Below are positions 9 to 8,808 of a stretch of 12,795 nt of DNA, in pieces. The position numbers and the translations under genes are program-made. This DNA comes from a virus, in the UHGV virus genome UHGV-0061597; one strand, 5' to 3'. How positions within the stretch are numbered: the first letter of the stretch is position 1; every line of letters begins with the position of its first letter. The notes under the pieces are model-generated. The model was given only the letters and a program-made list of their open reading frames with translations. It did not search any database and was not told where the DNA came from.

Positions 9-821
9 ATGTCTCTCGGTGCACTTGGGCCAGAAAAGGCGTTTGCTGTTCAGGATAAGATGGTTGGTCGCCAGCAGGAGCAGCAAAGAATTAACGAAAC
101 CATTCGCAATAATGACATGACGAATGCGAGGGCTATTAGGGGGCAGGATCTTTCCTATAAGGCTCAAATGGCAAGACTGAATCACGACAAGTATGTGTTT
201 AAGCAGTCACAGGCGGCTCTTGAAAGAGCAGGACAACTTCAGGATATGGATGTTTTGTCTCTTAACTCACAGATAGCAGCGACGGGAATTGATCCGCTAA
301 CCGGTAAAGCTGCAACGTCAGCCAGAATGTCTCAGGCTAAGAGATGGCTTGATGGCAACAATAATTACAACAATGCGTTGATTACTGGTGAGCGAGGGAT
401 AGAGAAAATAGATTCTTTGCTTGGTAAGAAGGAGCTTGAAGGTATCGGTCGCTTCGAAGGAAGAAATATAGATGGCTTCACAAGTGCTGAAGGGCTTGCA
501 AACCGTAATGCGATAGAAGAATTAAAGTCGGGTGCGTTTGTCCAGAACGTGCAGACTATGCGAGGTATGGGTAGCCTCTCCAATGCTGAAGGACAAAAAC
601 TGGAAAACCTTATCGCGAAACTCGATATAACACAGCCTGAAGAGGTCGTCAGAAAACAGTTATCTGAAATCCGATCGCAATATTCTGTATTTCAAAAGGT
701 TGCAGCAAGGGAGGCTGAATCAATGGGATATAGTTCATCAGGTTATGACACATATGTTAGTGAGCGAAAATCAGGAAGCGACAGCAATAAGTCCGGTTTC
801 TCGTCTTTATGGGGTGATTAA
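9..821 (+). CDS. Phage virion internal/DNA-ejection protein candidate (gp20-like position); the 5' end may lie upstream of the window
   Basis: 270-aa ORF, ATG at 9 with no in-frame stop in the 8 nt before it, so the true start could be outside the window. Stop TAA 819-821 overlaps the ATG of the next gene by 1 nt (TAATG). Gln/Ala/Gly-rich, low-complexity composition. Lies immediately upstream of a large Ala/Gly-rich protein and of the sieA-equivalent and immI region, matching the P22 order 7-20-16-sieA-immI-9. Product assignment is by synteny and composition only. Confidence 0.5.
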
Positions 822-2977
822 TGGCTAAAGCATGGAAAGATGTTATCGCTTCTCCACAGTATCAGGCGTTAACTGAAGAACAGAAAGCACAGGCTCAAGC
901 GCAATATTTTGATGAGGTTGTTGCCCCTAAGGCTGGTGACAAATGGGCTGAAGCAAGAGATCAGTTTTATGCAGCATACCCTCCACCTCAGCAGCAGAAA
1001 GAAGAACCATCATTGATGCAACAAGCTGGCGATTGGCTCACTGGTGGTCAAAGTGCAGGGCAAATTGCAGAACAGGCTGGTCGTGGTCTGGTAAACATAC
1101 CATTTGACGTATTGCAGGGTGGCGCAAGTCTGATTAATGCAATCAGCCAGGGGCTTGGTGGCCCCAAGGTTTTGGATGATGTTTATCGCCCTGTCGATCG
1201 ACCTACAGACCCTTACGCGCAAGCCGGTGAAACAATTGGTGGGTATCTCCTGCCAATTGGCACAGCGGCAAAAGCTGCTGGAGCGCCAGCAAAGCTCGCT
1301 GGAGATATCGGTTCCGCAGGAAACATGATTGCAGGTTCTCTTGCTGATGCTGCAAATCAGGATGGGGACTTTGCACAAAATGCTGCCATTAACGGTGGTA
1401 TCAATATTGGTGCTCAAGGCGTTCTTTCAGGTGTCGGGCGCGTTATTGCGCCAAGGGTTTCACAGGCTCTTGGTGGTGCGGCACTGAATTCTGCTAATGA
1501 TGTTTCTAGGATGGCAAAGTCAGGTGCTGGGCGTCAGTCAATTGCCAGTCAGGCCGCTAATGTGTCCGAAGATGTAGCAAAAGCGGCTGAGTCTGCTGGA
1601 ATTGATATAAACGCATTAACACCAGGAATGCGATCTGGAAGTCGTGGAATTGCACAAGCCGAAGGGATATTGGCATCCGAACCAGGAATTGTTCAGGATG
1701 CACATACTAGGGCTTTTAGTGAAATACAGTCGAAATTCCACTCAGCACTTGATGAACTTGGTGCTGAGGCTGGATCTGCATCAGAAAAAAGTGCAGCCAT
1801 AAAACAAAGGGTTTTAGCAAGTATTGATAAAATGAAGAACTCAGAAAAGGCAGCATGGGATAGCGTACGCTCCACGATGCCTGACGCAAAGGCCAGAATG
1901 TCAAACCTGAACGCTACAATTCAGGGTGATATTTTGGCTGGTATGCCGCTAACTCCTGAGATGAAACAATTTGCATCGGCTTATGCTAAAACTGGTAAAA
2001 AAGGAATCACGTTTGATGCCATGAAGGCATGGCGAAGTAAACTTGCTGACGCTGAGCAGAAGTATATAAGGTCTGGTGAGGCAAATACGGCAAGGCGCAT
2101 GGCGGAGCTTCGTGATGCAGCAACGGAAGATATGCGCATAATGGCTCAAAATGGCGGTTTTCTTGATGACTGGCAAAAAGCTAATGATCTGTCAAAAGCA
2201 AGATTTACAGCACAAGAACAGGCTGAAGCAGCGTTTAGAAACCTTGCAACTGATCAGTTAGTCACTGATGGTATTAAAGCCTTGCAAAATTCATCAAAAA
2301 GTGGGACAGGAAAGTTTCATCAGATTATTGGCGCACTGCCAGAGTCTGAGCGATCTCCAGCAATTGCATCAATATTACAAGATGCGGTATCGCAAGGGGT
2401 GCGTGGCGGTAAATCAGAGTCTGCTGGCGTATTCCATATAGCGTCGATCCTTACGCCGCAGAATATTACTGCCATTAGCAAGCACTCGCCAGAAATGGGT
2501 AAGATTGCTAGGGCATACAGCGACCTTGCCAGAGCAGCAACCAGACCACTGCGATATGTAGAGCATACGGGGCGCTCTATACCGGCAATTAACTCTCTTG
2601 AGCAAGGACTGCCAAAAGCTGTCATGACAGTTCTCAATGCAATAGGCAATTCAACATCAGGGGCTATTGTTGGTACCACTGGTGGAGGGATTGTTGGCGG
2701 TGTTGTGGGGGCTGTTTCTGGATCTATAGCTAAAGGGACGATAGAAAAGTTAGCTGCATCCCGCAGTGGTCGTTACGCTATTGAAAAGGCTGTTCAAGAG
2801 GCAACAAAGGCAGTTAAGGTTGGGGCAAGTGATGGTGCATTAGCGGCGGCTGAACGCAGATTTATGGCAAATAAAGCTGCTGTAAAAGCGATACGTGATA
2901 CCGTCGGAAACGAAGAGTTTCAGCGCTTAGCGAGGGGTGGGATTGTGGCATCGCTAAGCGGAATGGAGCGGGAGTAA
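821..2977 (+). CDS. Phage DNA-ejection (injection) protein candidate, gp16-like by position
   Basis: 718-aa ORF translationally coupled to the upstream ORF. Ala/Gly/Gln-rich, with a C-terminal glycine-zipper-like hydrophobic stretch ([25 protein letters not shown]), as expected of membrane-interacting ejection proteins. It is the last gene before the opposite-strand cargo and immI region. The specific family is not verified. Confidence 0.55.
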
Positions 2978-3001: not shown

Positions 3002-3424
3002 TTAGCCATCGGATAGGCGCTCTTTTGCCTCTTCGATTAAATCAGCACAAATAAGAGGTAGCTCTGATGAAACAACTTCCCAGCCAGATTTTTTAACAAC
3101 TTCATTTAACCACTCTTCTCGATCGTGAGTTCCTCTTCTTTTTTCTAGGAGGAAGATTTGAGAGTAAATCTGAATGGCCTTCTCGTTTAGATAAAACGCA
3201 TATTGCCTGTTTAAAACAACATCTGCAAGTATATCAATGCCTTGTTGGGTTTTTGCCGCTACATCTGGCTCTACTCCCATACGAATAGATAAATCGCATA
3301 ACTCAACAAATGCACGCTCTTCAGCGTCGTATTTCATTTTGTAAAAATGTGAAGCCAGTTTTTGTGTTTCGGCGAGTTCTGCCCTTAATTTTTTTATCTT
3401 GCTTCTCGTTAATATACCAAACAC
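3002..3424 (-). CDS. Hypothetical protein, third gene of the minus-strand cargo cassette; start probably GTG at 3424, alternative GTG at 3487
   Basis: The ORF track gives 3002..3487 (161 aa), but its first codon is GTG and the first ATG is 50 codons in. An in-frame GTG at 3424-3422 is preceded by a strong Shine-Dalgarno on the minus strand (AAGGAGG, 5-nt spacer), giving about 140 aa. No transmembrane segment and no motif I recognise. AT-rich codon usage like the two genes upstream of it. Confidence 0.6.
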   Translation of the reverse strand: MFGILTRSKIKKLRAELAETQKLASHFYKMKYDAEERAFVELCDLSIRMGVEPDVAAKTQQGIDILADVVLNRQYAFYLNEKAIQIYSQIFLLEKRRGTHDREEWLNEVVKKSGWEVVSSELPLICADLIEEAKERLSDG

Positions 3425-3551
3425 ACCAACCTCCTTAGTTTTACGCAGGATACCAGATGGTTTGGAGTGAGATAAAGGTTTGTCCACTTTTGGCTATAGC
3501 TTTATGTATCCGTGACGGATGTAATTATCACGGATGCATAAAAATTATATT

Positions 3552-4100
3552 TTAGTGTAATCTCTGATCGTCTGAATCGTGTAAGAACTCCATGAGACTT
3601 TGAACCGGAATTGGTTCTATTGATGACAATGTGAACACAGGAATATTGAGACTTTTGCAACGCTCAAACACTCCCTTATCATGAGTCCATACCTCGTCAG
3701 CATTAATTGCTCTTGCAATTGCTATTATTTGTCTGTCAAACTTAATTTTATTTGCTGTACCTTCTGTGCTAATTTTCCTTAATTCTTTTAATGTTGGTAT
3801 CGATGCGCATTCAATAGCAGCCAACTCATCAAATGATACAGTCTCGAAGCACGATAACGATTTGATAACATTCAGTTTTTCTTGTTGGTAATCTTTATGG
3901 ATTCCAACTAAAAACTCCGCCAATACAGGAGTTGGAACGATGATTGTCCCGTTCTTGTTATCTATTCGATCAACAAGAGCTTCTGCTCTTCTTTTGGCAT
4001 CTGGAATCTCAGAACCAAGTATAGGGTCAGATAATCTATAATCGTGTTCTATATCTGATAGTAGGTATACCAGAATATTGGTATCTAAAATTACTCGCAA
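3552..4100 (-). CDS. PIN-domain (VapC-like) putative ribonuclease
   Basis: 182-aa translation starts MRVILDTNILVYLL, the typical PIN beta1 motif with the first catalytic Asp. Further acidic residues are spaced as in PIN folds (LAEF, DRQIIAIA, WTHDKG). TTG start at 4100-4098 preceded by GAGGAAG. It overlaps the stop of the upstream gene by 10 nt, which indicates translational coupling. Confidence 0.75.
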   Translation of the reverse strand: MRVILDTNILVYLLSDIEHDYRLSDPILGSEIPDAKRRAEALVDRIDNKNGTIIVPTPVLAEFLVGIHKDYQQEKLNVIKSLSCFETVSFDELAAIECASIPTLKELRKISTEGTANKIKFDRQIIAIARAINADEVWTHDKGVFERCKSLNIPVFTLSSIEPIPVQSLMEFLHDSDDQRLH

Positions 4101-4810
4101 TTTATCTTCCTCAGAGTCCTAAGGATTGAATCAACATCGCGTTCCTCGGACCACTGATCTCCAGGAACTTGCTTGATAGCATTAATAGCATCCTTGAGTG
4201 ATGATTTTTTGAGCAATACAAATGAAGTTATTTTTAGTTTCTTTAGCTCCCATTTGTTGTTCTTTTTTTCCCAGCACCCATCTCCTTTAACCCTAATATA
4301 TTTGAATAGATGGGACCCAAGAGCTGCCGCCAAATCAGGGGTTGCCTCGCACTTGAATGTTTCACCGTTGGCTCCCTCAATACGCACAGGTATTGAGTTG
4401 TCTTTTCCGCCAACACTGTATAGCCTTCCTTGAACTTCTGACGTTTTTGTTATGAGTAAAGGGATTGGCTCCTTTTTTACTCGCGGGAATGCGATAATGG
4501 TTGAGTGGTTTCGTCCGAGTAGTTTCGCTGAAAAACCATCATGTTCCAGTAAATTAACAATTTTTTGATACGCGGGTGATTTCTCTTTGGCTGAGAGAGA
4601 GGCCCTTGCTATGACAGCGTTATAACAAATATCATTATCGACCCATGCATTTAAGTCAGCCGATCCTTCACTTACACAGTCGAAGTGAACAGAATCTGCA
4701 GAACCGTATAGATCTACGAGAGCAGACATATACTTGACCAACTTAGCCATTGACAGCTGGCCAGGGGTGGTTCCGTCAAGTTTTAATGTGAGTCCATTGC
4801 TTTTTTTCAT
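4091..4810 (-). CDS. Hypothetical protein, upstream partner of the PIN nuclease (candidate sensor or antitoxin-like component)
   Basis: 239-aa ORF with ATG at 4810-4808 and stop TAA at 4093-4091, overlapping the PIN gene start. No transmembrane segment, no Walker motif, no family I recognise. Far larger than a canonical VapB antitoxin. Same orientation as mnt, 49 bp downstream of the mnt stop. Confidence 0.75.
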   Translation of the reverse strand: MKKSNGLTLKLDGTTPGQLSMAKLVKYMSALVDLYGSADSVHFDCVSEGSADLNAWVDNDICYNAVIARASLSAKEKSPAYQKIVNLLEHDGFSAKLLGRNHSTIIAFPRVKKEPIPLLITKTSEVQGRLYSVGGKDNSIPVRIEGANGETFKCEATPDLAAALGSHLFKYIRVKGDGCWEKKNNKWELKKLKITSFVLLKKSSLKDAINAIKQVPGDQWSEERDVDSILRTLRKINCE

Positions 4811-4859: not shown

Positions 4860-5114
4860 CTATAACTTACTTTTGCTATAAATATTTTTCAGCGTTTCAA
4901 AGACCATCTTCTTAACAACGTCAGATTGCTCATCCGCGACTCGCTCAGCTTCGTCTCGATAGCCTACAATTGATGATGGCTTTGAGAGAGCATCCTGAAC
5001 GATTTGTAATAACTCAGAGTTCATTGACCTTCCGTTAGCCTCTGCTCTTAATTTCAATTTTTCTCTTACTTCCAAAGGCATACGGAAGTTAAAGTGCGGA
5101 TCGTCTCTAGCCAT
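4860..5114 (-). CDS. mnt: Mnt repressor (ribbon-helix-helix, immI maintenance-of-lysogeny repressor)
   Basis: 84-aa translation MARDDPHFNFRMPLEVREKLKLRAEANGRSMNSELLQIVQDAL closely matches my memory of P22 Mnt, and its N-terminus has the same RHH motif as Arc. It is divergently oriented from arc, with the operators between them. Confidence 0.9.
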   Translation of the reverse strand: MARDDPHFNFRMPLEVREKLKLRAEANGRSMNSELLQIVQDALSKPSSIVGYRDEAERVADEQSDVVKKMVFETLKNIYSKSKL

Positions 5115-5141
5115 GCCATCACCCCAAGTTAGTGTATTGAC

Positions 5142-5162
5142 ATGATAGAAGCACTCTACTAT
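5142..5162. promoter_or_regulatory. Arc operator (Oarc), 21 bp
   Basis: ATGATAGAAGCACTCTACTAT matches the P22 arc operator sequence as I recall it (TAGA half-sites). It lies between the divergent mnt and arc genes, where Pant and Pmnt overlap. Confidence 0.75.
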
Positions 5163-5170
5163 ATTCTCAA

Positions 5171-5189
5171 TAGGTCCACGGTGGACCTA
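5171..5189. promoter_or_regulatory. Mnt operator (Omnt), a perfect inverted repeat overlapping Pant
   Basis: TAGGTCCAC-G-GTGGACCTA, 9-bp arms around one central base, seen directly. It contains the GGTCCACGGTGGACC core of the P22 mnt operator as I recall it and sits about 16 bp upstream of the arc ATG. Confidence 0.8.
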
Positions 5190-5204
5190 TATTGTGAGGT
5201 AAAT

Positions 5205-5363: not shown

Positions 5364-5581
5364 GGTTTATTGAGGTTGATGAGATTGGCTATGAGAATGC
5401 ACTTGGTAGAGGTAAATCTTTAGTTAACGTTAATGGCATTGAGTCGATAAGGAGCGGTGAATTTACGGAGATCAGAATGATGTCAGGTGGAATCATTCCT
5501 TGCCGTGATTCAGTAGAGTCAATCAAAGCAAGAATGAGTGGTCAGTGGCTTTATAACTACAGTGACTTACAAAAACAGTGA
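5360..5581 (+). CDS. Hypothetical small protein (73 aa) translationally coupled to arc
   Basis: Its ATG overlaps the arc stop (ATGA at 5360-5363). A purine-rich tract AGAGAGGGG lies upstream. It fills a roughly 280-bp arc-ant gap that I recall being short in P22. No recognisable domain; coding status unverified. Confidence 0.4.
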
Positions 5582-5642
5582 AGCCCCAACTGCTGGAACA
5601 GTCGGGGCTTCGGTATCAACAAATCAGATAGGAATTATTGAT

Positions 5643-6572
5643 ATGACAAGTTTAGCAAAGTCAACATTAAATTGCACTAACAGCATCACCATTTCAGACG
5701 TCAAGATTCATATGGATTCAGAGGGGCGTTACTCGCTTAATGACCTGCACAAGGCATCAGGTAAAGAGCGTCGTCATGAGCCTGCGGCGTGGCTGCGACT
5801 CGAACAAACCAATGAGTTAGTTCAAGAAATTCTAAATACACAGATGTGTGTATTTAAAAATGGCGATAACTTTAATTCTTCAGAATCGCAGATTAAGAAG
5901 CCAATGGACTCTAAGAAGGGTCGCTACGGAGGCACCTACGTGTGCAAGGAGCTTGTTTACTCCTACGCCATGTGGATTAGCGCAGCCTTTGCGCTGAAGG
6001 TTATCCGTGCATATGACGCAATGGTTACTGCCACACAAGAGAGGAAAGCTATTGGCGGTAAAACTTCAGTAGCTGAACGCACACCGCTACGAGATGCAGT
6101 AAACATGCTGGTAGGAAAGAAAGGACTTCGCTATGACGATGCATACAATATGGTTCATCAGCGTTTTGGTATTGACAGCATTGATGAACTTTCAATTGAA
6201 CAAATCCCGCTGGCCGTAGAGTACATCCACAGGGTAGTGCTTGAAGGTGAGTTCATCGGCAAACAAGAGAAGAAAACCAACGAGCTTTCTGCAAAAGAAG
6301 CAAACAGCCTTGTATGGCTATGGGATTATGCCAACCGCTCACAGGCATTATTCCGCGAACTGTATCCGGCATTAAAACAAATTCAATCGAACTATTCCGG
6401 CAGATGTCATGACTGCGGTTATGAGTTCTCCCGTATTATCGATATAGCGAGAGACGTTTTAATCAATCACACACGAGATGTTGATATCAATGAGCCAGAC
6501 GGACCAACGAATCTTTCCGCATGGATGAGACTTAAGAATAAAGAATTACCTCCTTCAGTACATAACTACTGA
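5643..6572 (+). CDS. ant: Antirepressor, KilA-N domain type (Ant)
   Basis: The long ORF starts at 5538, but the ATG at 5643 with an upstream AGGA puts the KilA-N-like motif ([32 protein letters not shown] ... [18 protein letters not shown]) at the N-terminus. A C-terminal antirepressor-like domain follows. It sits downstream of arc in the immI operon. 309 aa from 5643. Confidence 0.8.
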
Positions 6573-6750: not shown

Positions 6751-8808
6751 ATGACAGACATTACAGCCAATGTTGTAGTGAGTATGCCTTCGCAACTCTT
6801 CACTATGGCGCGTTCTTTTAAAGCCGTAGCCAATGGCAAAATTTATATCGGTAAAATTGACACTGACCCGGTAAATCCTGAAAACCAGATTCAGGTTTAT
6901 GTGGAGAACGAAGACGGCTCTCACGTTCCTGTTCCGCAACCAATCATCATTAATGCTGCTGGATATCCGGTATATAACGGACAGATTGCCAAATTCGTTA
7001 CTGTACAGGGCCATTCTATGGCTGTTTATGATGCGTACGGTGTGCAGCAGTTCTATTTTCCGAATGTGCTGAAGTATGACCCGGATCAGTTAAGACAAGA
7101 GTTAGCAACAGAGGGTAATGAAATACTTGTTGACGACTCCCGTATTGCAGTTAAAAGTGTTCATGTAAATTCAAAACTTAGAACACAGCACAATAAAAAC
7201 GCAGAAATAATCACGCCAAATGATTTTATATCAAATTATGACATGATATCTGCAGCTATTAACTCTGGAGAGAGTGCCGCAGTATTTAATTCCAGGTATG
7301 CATTCACAATAACAGTTGGGGAATATGGTAATTTTAAATCTATTAGTGATGCTCTAAACTCGGCTGTTGCACTGCGTCCACTATGGAAAAATGGCATTGA
7401 CTTTTGCATAATTAAAATTCTTTCCGGTTTTGTGCTCAATGAGCAAATAGAAATTTCAGCAGGATGTGACTTATCATGGATTAAAATAATATCAGAAGAC
7501 TCAGTGGTTTTCTCTGATACCAGTTTGTTTACTAAAACTGTTAGGACGTATTACGAATACAAATATTTATTTTACATTTGCGATGCAGCAAAAAGTCCTG
7601 TATTTGCTATTCAGATTGAAGAAAATAGAGATGATAGCGATGTTTGTGCATTTATTGTAACTCAAAAAGCTGAACTTAATTTCTATCCGTATTCAGGTGC
7701 TCGAAAGTTCTACGTTGGAATTCATGGTAGTTTTGGTGCAAAAATTAGTGCATATCATACCGGATGTGCTCCTGATGAGGAAAGTGTTGCTGCATATATG
7801 CCAGAAGGATATTACGTATGTGATTTTTCTTATAGCAGATACTCTTCCCTGCAACTGGTAAATAATGTCAAGGCATCAATGCCTGTAAGCAAGTTTGAAC
7901 GGTGCACAGAGAGTACGGTTGCGTCAGTTAATTGTATTTATAATGTTAAAGCAGATTTTCAGGGGTCAAGTGCAAGCTATTGTTATATAGGATGGAATGT
8001 AAGAGATGGTTCAAATGTTAATATACGCGACCATAAAACTATACATTGCTCATATCGTGGATTAACCTGCATTCATACAGCATATGTTGATGCAAGACGA
8101 CATGACGTTGAAGAAAGTGATGCAGAAACAAGTGGTAAAGTCCTTGAACCAAATATTGAAAAAGGTTTTTATGGATGTGCACTTGGTGTGCGTATTGATG
8201 GTGCGGGTTGCGTTGATGTTGCTGGTAATGATATGCGCAATTGTGGAACAGCCGTTAATGCAGACACTGGTGCTGTTATTTCAGGAAAGGCTGTAGATAT
8301 CTCAGGGGCTGAGCTGGGATTTGATTGCCATGCAGGAGCATCTGTTAATTTTCCAAGGCTATGGGGTACAGATATAAAAAAATTAATGCACCTCCAAGAT
8401 GGTGTAAGGTTTAACTCTAATATTTGTCATGTATTTGGTGCAAATCCCACAAAAGATATTAGATGGATTGATGTAGAGAGATCTGAAGCTTCTTTTATGA
8501 ATGCAACGCTGGATGCAGATTCAGGATTTATTGCCGACTGTGGTAGTAGGATAACCATTGAAGGAAGTAAAGTTAAAAACCAAACAATAAGAAGTTTTTT
8601 TGGATCACATGTGGCTATAAATAATACTGTTGCTGACAGAACTTATTCAGATATAGCCGATGTTCCGCAGTTGACTATTAGTGGAGGATCTTTTATTTCT
8701 GCTACAGGATATTCTAATTCTGACTCCAGCCCTCTTAGGTTGAGCACAACACGAAATACACTTGGAGTTGGAGGAGCCATATTTTCAACCAATGGGGAAG
8801 TTTCATGA
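6751..8808 (+). CDS. Tailspike protein: P22-like N-terminal head-binding domain fused to a divergent receptor-binding domain
   Basis: The first ~113 aa ([34 protein letters not shown] ... NVLKYDPDQ) closely match the P22 gp9 N-terminal domain as I recall it. The remaining ~570 aa show no resemblance to P22 gp9 and are Cys-rich and AT-rich. GGAG lies upstream of the ATG. 685 aa. Confidence 0.92.

Follow-up and report, generated by a model that had tools for sequence, protein, structure and literature searches.

An imperfect inverted repeat with a stable predicted RNA hairpin between a PIN-domain gene and an exchangeable cargo gene of a P22-like prophage

Genes and features of the locus

The DNA analysed here, a 12,795-nt stretch of viral origin referred to below as the window, was assigned by Pfam and PHROG matches to the ejection-protein, immI ("ant moron") and tailspike region of a P22-like E. 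coli prophage. In E. coli the whole prophage (39-kb) sits between sbcB and dacD. The genes and other features of the window are collected in Table 1. The gp16-like protein was found to be 718 aa long (vs 608-649 aa for the gp16 homologues of Salmonella loci), and in its N-terminal third it matched PHROG families with the annotations transglycosylase and lytic tail fibre. In the prophage copy of strain Ecol_AZ146 (locus L001, 1-372), an ISEc52 element (IS3-family) is located just upstream of an apparently shortened ejection-protein gene; this prophage copy is probably defective.

Table 1. Coordinates of genes, sites and sequence elements in the window
Feature	Position	Strand	Remarks
gp20-like gene	9-821	+	Pfam/PHROG
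gp16-like ejection protein gene	821-2977	+	convergent with leftward cargo gene
Cargo gene A (third gene)	3002-3424	-	140 aa, soluble, no family match
Conserved linker, (CATC)TGGTATCCTGCnnAAAACTAAGGAGGTTGGTGTG	3422-3459	-	AAGGAGG 3436-3430, start GTG 3424-3422
Doubtful 32-codon antisense ORF (MVWSEIKVCPLLAIALCIRDGCNYHGCIKIIF)	3457-3555	+	spans unique leader
Leader segment specific to this PIN module	3460-3551	-	92 nt
Imperfect inverted repeat	3501-3542		42 bp; arms 3501-3515 and 3528-3542, 12-nt spacer
Perfect 6-1-6 palindrome	3508-3520		end of left arm plus extra ACGGAT(G) in spacer
ACGGATG copy	3530-3536	+	inside right arm, 15 nt from middle copy
Promoter-like hexamers	3544-3576	-	TTCAGA (3576-3571), 16-nt spacer, TAAAAT (3554-3549)
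PIN-domain protein gene	3552-4100	-	182 aa; Pfam PF01850, E = 4e-10; phrog_21691
239-aa partner protein gene	4091-4810	-	C-terminal half an OB fold; phrog_19868; AlphaFold2; Foldseek
Mnt-like ribbon-helix-helix repressor gene	4860-5114	-	leads leftward operon; Pfam Arc and Repressor_Mnt
Pmnt/Pant with P22-type Arc and Mnt operators	about 5137-5190		
Mnt operator, ATAGGTCCACCGTGGACCTAT	5170-5190		
ant	5538-6572	+	arc also on + strand here
sar RNA	5577-5641		Rfam
Tailspike gene	6751-8808	+	

The promoter Pmnt (TTGAGA-17-TATCAT, 5170-5142) faces leftward into mnt. The gap between mnt and the gene for the 239-aa protein is 49 nt, the 239-aa gene and the PIN gene overlap by 10 nt, and a terminator scan found no terminator-like site on the minus strand from Pmnt to the start of the cargo gene. 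The original prediction had placed the sequence motif that is the subject of this study in a 64-bp gap between PIN and the third gene, a distance that holds for the GTG of the longest ORF (3487). The RefSeq start is GTG 3424, which follows AAGGAGG at a distance of five nucleotides and coincides exactly with the end of the similarity to other prophages. With this start the gap measures 127 nt, and the palindrome is located 84-96 nt ahead of the gene.

The 239-aa protein was modelled with AlphaFold2 (pLDDT 85), and Foldseek matched its C-terminal half to the OB folds of Stn1, RPA32, SSB and LysRS. A DNA-binding domain was considered for this protein and rejected, an OB fold being found instead of HTH or RHH. 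The model suggests that the protein is a single-stranded nucleic-acid binder and not an HTH/RHH repressor.

We found the OB-fold/PIN pair as a conserved two-gene module in prophages of Enterobacterales and Pseudomonas (loci L049-L052 and L045-L048). In the Enterobacter and Pseudomonas prophages (L049-L052) the module lies directly downstream of a CI-type repressor gene on the same strand. In one of them, from Enterobacter (L049), it is followed by terminators and then by an O_L/P_L-like TTGACA promoter, whose operators recur in the repressor/cro intergenic region. The position directly behind a lysogenic repressor suggests that the module is normally read from the repressor promoter, as it would be from Pmnt here. 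Such a position is the classic site of exclusion and abortive-infection functions such as rexAB, and by analogy we regard the module as a candidate for an uncharacterised prophage exclusion or abortive-infection system. PADLOC v2 gave no match for any of the three cassette proteins, and NCBIfam returned only weak VapC-like matches for the PIN protein.

The inverted repeat and its predicted fold

We confirmed the sequence and coordinates of the palindrome ATCCGTGACGGAT (ATCCGT-G-ACGGAT, 3508-3520) and of the third ACGGAT (3530-3535); the second and third copies are both extended to the 7-mer ACGGATG. The arrangement as originally described is real, but it is no rarer than chance. The window has 19 perfect 6-N(0-3)-6 palindromes, where dinucleotide shuffles gave 14.5 +/- 4.5; a palindrome with a third half-site no more than 30 nt away was seen in 34% of such shuffles; and ACGGAT was counted eight times in the window, with 4.1 +/- 2.1 expected.

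While the half-sites had been described correctly, a larger repeat and a strong hairpin around them had been overlooked. The left arm of this repeat, TTTATGTATCCGTGA (3501-3515), and its right arm, TCACGGATGCATAAA (3528-3542), are complementary at 14 of 15 positions, and the repeat starts 8 nt past the PIN stop codon. Only one inverted repeat with 15-nt arms and at most 1 mismatch is found in the window, and such a repeat is present in 2% of shuffles; the larger inverted repeat is the non-random feature of this region. The middle ACGGATG copy (3515-3521) is located in the spacer, where it abuts the left arm and creates the 13-bp perfect palindrome. Described as half-sites, the repeat consists of the 8-bp inverted sequences ATCCGTGA and TCACGGAT with a 12-bp spacer, the outer pair being about 22 bp apart from centre to centre.

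RNA folding supported a structured element. The sense (minus-strand) RNA was predicted to form a hairpin of -17 kcal/mol (z = -5.65), and none of 200 shuffles folded as well. The stem, which spans 3500-3543, has 7 + 9 bp with one C.A mismatch and closes a 10-nt loop. In plus-strand RNA the mismatch becomes G.U and the predicted energy is -20.5 kcal/mol. Rfam covariance models gave no match at 3420-3560 even at E <= 5, the only hit in the window being sar RNA.

The statement that no T-run adjoins the palindrome on either strand was right. On the 3' side of the stem the minus strand continues with CUAUAGCCAAAAG and the plus strand with AAAAAUUAUAUUUUAG, neither of which provides a U-tract. There is thus a stable stem-loop just downstream of a gene but no U-tract 3' of it, and the hairpin is therefore not a canonical terminator; the terminator scan likewise did not flag the repeat, in agreement with the original view that the site is not terminator-like. 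Homologous modules of about 55% identity carry a canonical GC hairpin with a T-run (Rho-independent terminator) 3-25 nt past PIN, and a 76%-identical copy from Pantoea has a hairpin directly after the PIN stop. An intrinsic terminator that ends the PIN operon, or the late transcripts of the plus strand, would account for a stable hairpin in the place where homologous modules have theirs. We nevertheless consider it very unlikely, because both strands lack a U-tract, the stem has an A/U-rich base and a loop of 10-12 nt, and the scan for terminators passed over the repeat.

Promoter prediction identified TTCAGA-16-TAAAAT as the one promoter-like pair beside the repeat, with 9/12 matches to the consensus, but sites of this kind are common by chance (nine promoter-like sites were found by the consensus scan vs 5.8 +/- 2.6 by chance). 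A perfect TATAAT (3549-3544) without a -35 element is also present. A start from either -10-like hexamer would fall at the base of the hairpin.

We then looked at possible DNA-binding partners. The only dsDNA-binding repressor of the cassette is Mnt, whose operator is elsewhere; the N-terminal sequences and operators of Mnt and Arc are of P22 type. The repeat was rejected as a Mnt/Arc operator, as TCC is all that ATCCGT has in common with a half-site of O_mnt (AGGTCCACGGTGGACCT). No further clusters of the motif were found in the 39-kb prophage with its flanks (49.5 kb), where the frequency of ACGGAT is at expectation. The motif is absent from the immC operator regions, and the half-site was not found in the 49-nt region upstream of the 239-aa gene. 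Taken together, the OB-fold and PIN proteins, the location of the Mnt/Arc operators elsewhere and the lone motif leave no candidate repressor and no regulon. An operator derived from a donor phage gained no support: a gapped scan of viral contigs for ATCCGTGA-N(6-20)-TCACGGAT returned only scattered matches in unrelated contexts and no operator arrays. Among the CRP, Fur, LexA, DnaA, lambda-operator, NikR and MalT consensus sequences, we know of none that convincingly resembles the site.

Cargo exchange and distribution of the repeat

About 34 nt upstream of and including the cargo start, TGGTATCCTGCnnAAAACTAAGGAGGTTGGTGTG (3455-3422), are common to the start of P22 sieA, to HK620 hkcB and to 281 E. 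coli genomes. The 1.9-kb cassette region had matches in 54 of 5,426 complete E. coli genomes, only 19 of which contained the whole region; among the partial matches listed, similarity ends at 3418-3422 of the window. We compared loci from otherwise near-identical prophages (L002, L003, L012, L041, L045 and L047) and found the same leader, ribosome-binding site and GTG before five unrelated ORFs, the leader differing by a few scattered SNPs. In addition to cargo A of this window, these are cargo B (109 aa, with a transmembrane segment and a coiled coil, corresponding to HK620 HkcB), cargo C (a 62-aa membrane peptide), cargo D (129 aa, with a signal peptide) and cargo E (a 75-aa membrane protein). 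Small membrane or secreted proteins thus account for four of the five ORFs. These sequence comparisons indicate that the linker is the junction where sieA-slot cargo genes are exchanged.

The suggestion that the third gene is a separate unit was borne out, in that this gene is exchangeable and is preceded by a strong ribosome-binding site of its own. Its autoregulation, which had also been proposed, did not hold up, since the site and the cargo are not inherited together. Cargo A was also found behind leaders lacking the palindrome, in one case by a P63C-domain gene and in another in Salmonella, and it had no Pfam, NCBIfam, PHROG or PADLOC match, and hence no match to a DNA-binding domain. For an operator bound by the third-gene product there speaks only its location upstream of that gene. 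With one leader in front of five unrelated ORFs, self-regulation of the third gene is for practical purposes excluded, and of all the readings considered here we give it the lowest probability.

The two parts of the leader differ in their distribution. A different ant-moron type (L043) has a leader with about 83% similarity to the proximal part (3422-3484, including 3460-3484 of the PIN-specific segment), and the remaining 67 nt (3485-3551), which carry the repeat, were found only beside this PIN gene. In 33 E. coli genomes a 73-nt stretch (3484-3556) was 100% identical, single-copy and always beside PIN; it was not found in plasmids. With one copy per genome and zero plasmid matches, a dispersed palindromic repeat (REP or MITE-like) or a mobile element was rejected. 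Copies from IMG/VR and metagenomes are nearly all identical, with few scattered SNPs, only one of them in the stem. In one natural variant (L025/L042), a stem pair and a half-site are disrupted by a change from G to T.

P22-like prophages of Salmonella enterica contain a 72%-identical version of the module in the order Mnt, 238-aa protein, PIN, cargo, gp16. Only 61 nt lie between PIN and the cargo start in these prophages, without the palindrome, the hairpin or conserved -10-like hexamers. The existence of this junction indicates that the repeat is not required. Judged by this distribution, the repeat appears to be a recent, dispensable and lineage-specific accessory of the E. coli version of the module.

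Several other features of the slot were observed. The predicted fold of the leader (3425-3475, minus strand) pairs CACUCC (about 3469-3464) with the Shine-Dalgarno GGAG, a pairing that could possibly sequester the ribosome-binding site; for the leader as a whole, z is only -1.8. A hypervariable patch of 2-4 nt (3443-3446, minus strand GCGT in CCTGCGTAAAAC), close to the Shine-Dalgarno sequence on its 5' side, has six or more alleles (GCGT, GCGC, ACTC, GCAC, GCTC, GCTA) in an otherwise invariant leader. P22 has GCAC and HK620 GCGA at this position, and the alleles show no correlation with cargo type; the patch may be an old linker polymorphism reshuffled by crossovers within the linker. In another prophage (L044, 2530-2690, minus strand) the leader before cargo A contains 3-4 copies of ATGCTTGCAT/ATGCAAGCAT. 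This array adjoins the divergent P63C-domain gene and is far more clearly operator-like than the one in the window.

A fourth ACGGAT (2988-2993) was considered as a cassette-flanking repeat and rejected, because it belongs to a separate mini-hairpin, CCATCCnTGG, at the 3' end of the slot. This conserved mini-hairpin (2983-2998, AATCCACGGATGGATT) is flanked by the stops of the cargo gene (3002) and of gp16 (2977) and has no relation to the repeat at 3501-3542. At the 3' end of the slot we saw it behind cargo A, cargo C, the L043 cargo and P22 sieA, and for hkcB within the end of the coding sequence; the copies show an apparent compensatory change (ATCCA/TGGAT vs AGCCA/TGGCT).

Possible roles of the repeat and comparison with known systems

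We tentatively favour the reading that the repeat is a module-boundary RNA stem-loop in the Pmnt operon transcript. The transcription unit would run leftward and be expressed in the lysogen, from Pmnt through mnt, the 239-aa OB-fold gene and PIN to the cargo. In the 127-nt spacer between PIN and cargo, the repeat would act as RNA at the position where diverged modules carry a Rho-independent terminator. As the hairpin has no U-tract, transcription would continue into the cargo gene, and the mRNA would be punctuated at the hairpin without ending there. For the PIN segment the hairpin might be a barrier that stabilises the 3' end, or a processing point; for a cargo transcript initiated at the adjacent -10-like hexamers it might be a 5' structure.

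Consistent with this are the strength of the sense-strand fold, the rarity of the 15-nt-arm repeat among shuffles, and its location 8 nt past the PIN stop, equivalent to that of the terminators of homologues. Co-transcription with the upstream genes would agree with the short 49-nt gap, the overlapping genes and the minus strand free of terminator-like sites from Pmnt to cargo, as well as with the position of the module elsewhere, behind a CI-type repressor on the same strand. The lack of an obvious dsDNA binder in the cassette apart from Mnt also points to RNA. Against it, the antisense RNA has G.U where the sense RNA has its sole mismatch, C.A, and a hairpin could do without the third ACGGATG copy in its loop (the chance of this copy, given the repeat, is about 0.01 by our own estimate). 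The 33/33 E. coli copies and nearly all metagenomic ones are identical and more distant modules lack the repeat, so that there is no covariation to read. The G-to-T variant (L025/L042) breaks a stem pair, the 61-nt Salmonella junction has no hairpin and no known RNA family matches. A more specific form of the stem-loop reading, in which the repeated CAUCCGU motif exposed in the loop would be a cis RNA (or ssDNA) ligand or cleavage site for the OB-fold/PIN pair, is improbable. If true, the nuclease module would process its own operon transcript and set the expression of a swappable exclusion gene, and a module of superinfection defence would be coupled, at the post-transcriptional level, to the cargo that happens to fill the sieA slot.

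Two other readings rank close to the RNA stem-loop and follow it in the order given here. It is possible, though less likely, that the repeat is a DNA operator at a weak internal promoter, where a dimer or tetramer on the ATCCGTGA half-sites would block starts at TAAAAT/TATAAT. The binder could be encoded outside the cassette, by a host or other prophage gene. Alternatively, the PIN module could have brought the site along, as an orphan piece of an operator-promoter region, from a lambdoid donor phage in which the module would lie between a cI-type repressor gene and O_L/P_L. An operator would explain why one 7-8-mer is present three times, in part as a perfect 13-bp palindrome, and also the -10-like hexamers 2-7 nt upstream, from which the repeat would cover about +1 to +40. 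Operator-bearing promoters do occur downstream of the module elsewhere, as seen in the Enterobacter prophage (L049) in which terminators and then an operator-bearing TTGACA promoter follow it. The leader in the same slot of L044 carries an obvious ATGCTTGCAT array, and the geometry of 8-bp inverted half-sites about two helical turns apart is reminiscent of FitAB/VapBC operators. However, no candidate binder is at hand, the 239-aa protein having an OB fold, PIN being a nuclease and the Mnt/Arc operators lying at 5142-5190. Neither the rest of the 39-kb prophage with its flanks nor the immC operator regions contain a second such site, the promoter matches the consensus at only 9/12 positions, which is chance level, and its hexamers are not kept in the palindrome-less Salmonella module. 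The gapped-motif scan of viral contigs, with its scattered matches in unrelated contexts and zero arrays, also argues against an operator.

Somewhat less likely again is a functionless junction relic, a 67-nt scrap from the recombination that brought the PIN module up to the sieA-slot linker. Template switching at quasi-palindromes would have perfected its nested palindromes by mutation, and only the youth of the lineage would explain its persistence. The complete identity in 33/33 E. coli genomes shows nothing beyond clonality that would point to purifying selection, the orthologous junction of Salmonella does without the repeat, a natural variant has a disrupted half-site, and the region is in rapid genetic flux (PMC2629481). 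It is harder to reconcile with a relic that a repeat with 15-nt arms is rare by chance (2% of shuffled windows), that it was kept unchanged through at least four cargo exchanges and that it lies precisely at the terminator-equivalent position. The repeat could also be the coding sequence of a 32-aa antisense small protein with a repeated Gly-Cys motif, expressed by late read-through; we regard this as very improbable, on a par with an intrinsic terminator. In this frame the direct ACGGATG copies encode DGC and HGC, and Cys occurs at every fifth residue (C-x4-C-x4-C). The ORF has an AGGA ribosome-binding site and begins where HK620 hkcC begins on the plus strand, its two direct copies are 15 nt apart and in frame, and late transcription has been reported through the region (PMC2629481). 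By our own estimate, however, a 32-codon frame in AT-rich DNA has a chance of about 10-20%. The ORF was called by a gene finder on one contig among 15 billion proteins, its cluster has no other member, and it leaves the inverted repeat unexplained.

The repeat alone is a minor lineage-specific intergenic element, and little hinges on it. Should the hairpin be found to separate or to couple expression of the PIN module and the cargo, this would show in what way such stacked prophage defence genes are co-regulated.

When compared with known elements, the repeat lacks defining features of a terminator, a TA-type operator, a Mnt/Arc operator, an Rfam RNA and a dispersed repeat; it is one more intergenic palindrome or stem-loop of uncertain role. 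FitAB/VapBC operators consist of 8-bp inverted repeats about two helical turns apart, bound by complexes of an RHH/AbrB antitoxin and a PIN toxin. The window shares with this family the 8-bp inverted half-sites, the 12-bp spacer and a neighbouring PIN gene. Its site, however, is downstream of PIN instead of lying in the promoter of the operon, the partner protein, with 239 aa and an OB fold, is not a small DNA-binding antitoxin, and the Salmonella orthologue does not have the site. Stabilising or processing stem-loops are also known between the cistrons of polycistronic mRNAs, e.g. the REP hairpins in malE-malF. The window likewise has a stable U-less hairpin between cistrons of an apparent operon, but as a single-copy element per genome rather than a dispersed one.

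The lambda layout is cI-rexAB-t_imm-O_L/P_L. The OB-fold/PIN pair similarly follows a lysogenic repressor, which is CI-type in L049-L052 and Mnt here, and in both settings a hairpin-like element comes after the last module gene. In the L049 type this is a canonical terminator, with the operator promoter at a distance, whereas the window has one U-less hairpin by -10-like hexamers. Unlike in L049, the motif of the window does not match the operator regions of the resident repressor.

The locus belongs to the ant moron/sieA region of P22-like phages, a known region of high variability that is in rapid genetic flux and through which late transcription is reported to read (PMC2629481). In P22, sieA occupies the same slot, between mnt and gene 16 and transcribed toward gene 16, and shares the identical stretch of about 34 nt with the ribosome-binding site and GTG. 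By experiment, 85 bp upstream of P22 sieA were enough for its expression (PMC10883804). Upstream of the linker, P22 has an annotated putative PsieA and, further up, t_mnt (PMC10883804). In the window the stretch equivalent to PsieA is replaced by the 92 nt specific to the PIN module, with the repeat, and no terminator separates the cargo from the upstream genes. The sieA slot can be described as an expression platform in which a fixed leader, ribosome-binding site and start codon serve at least five interchangeable small genes, most of them encoding small membrane proteins like P22 SieA.
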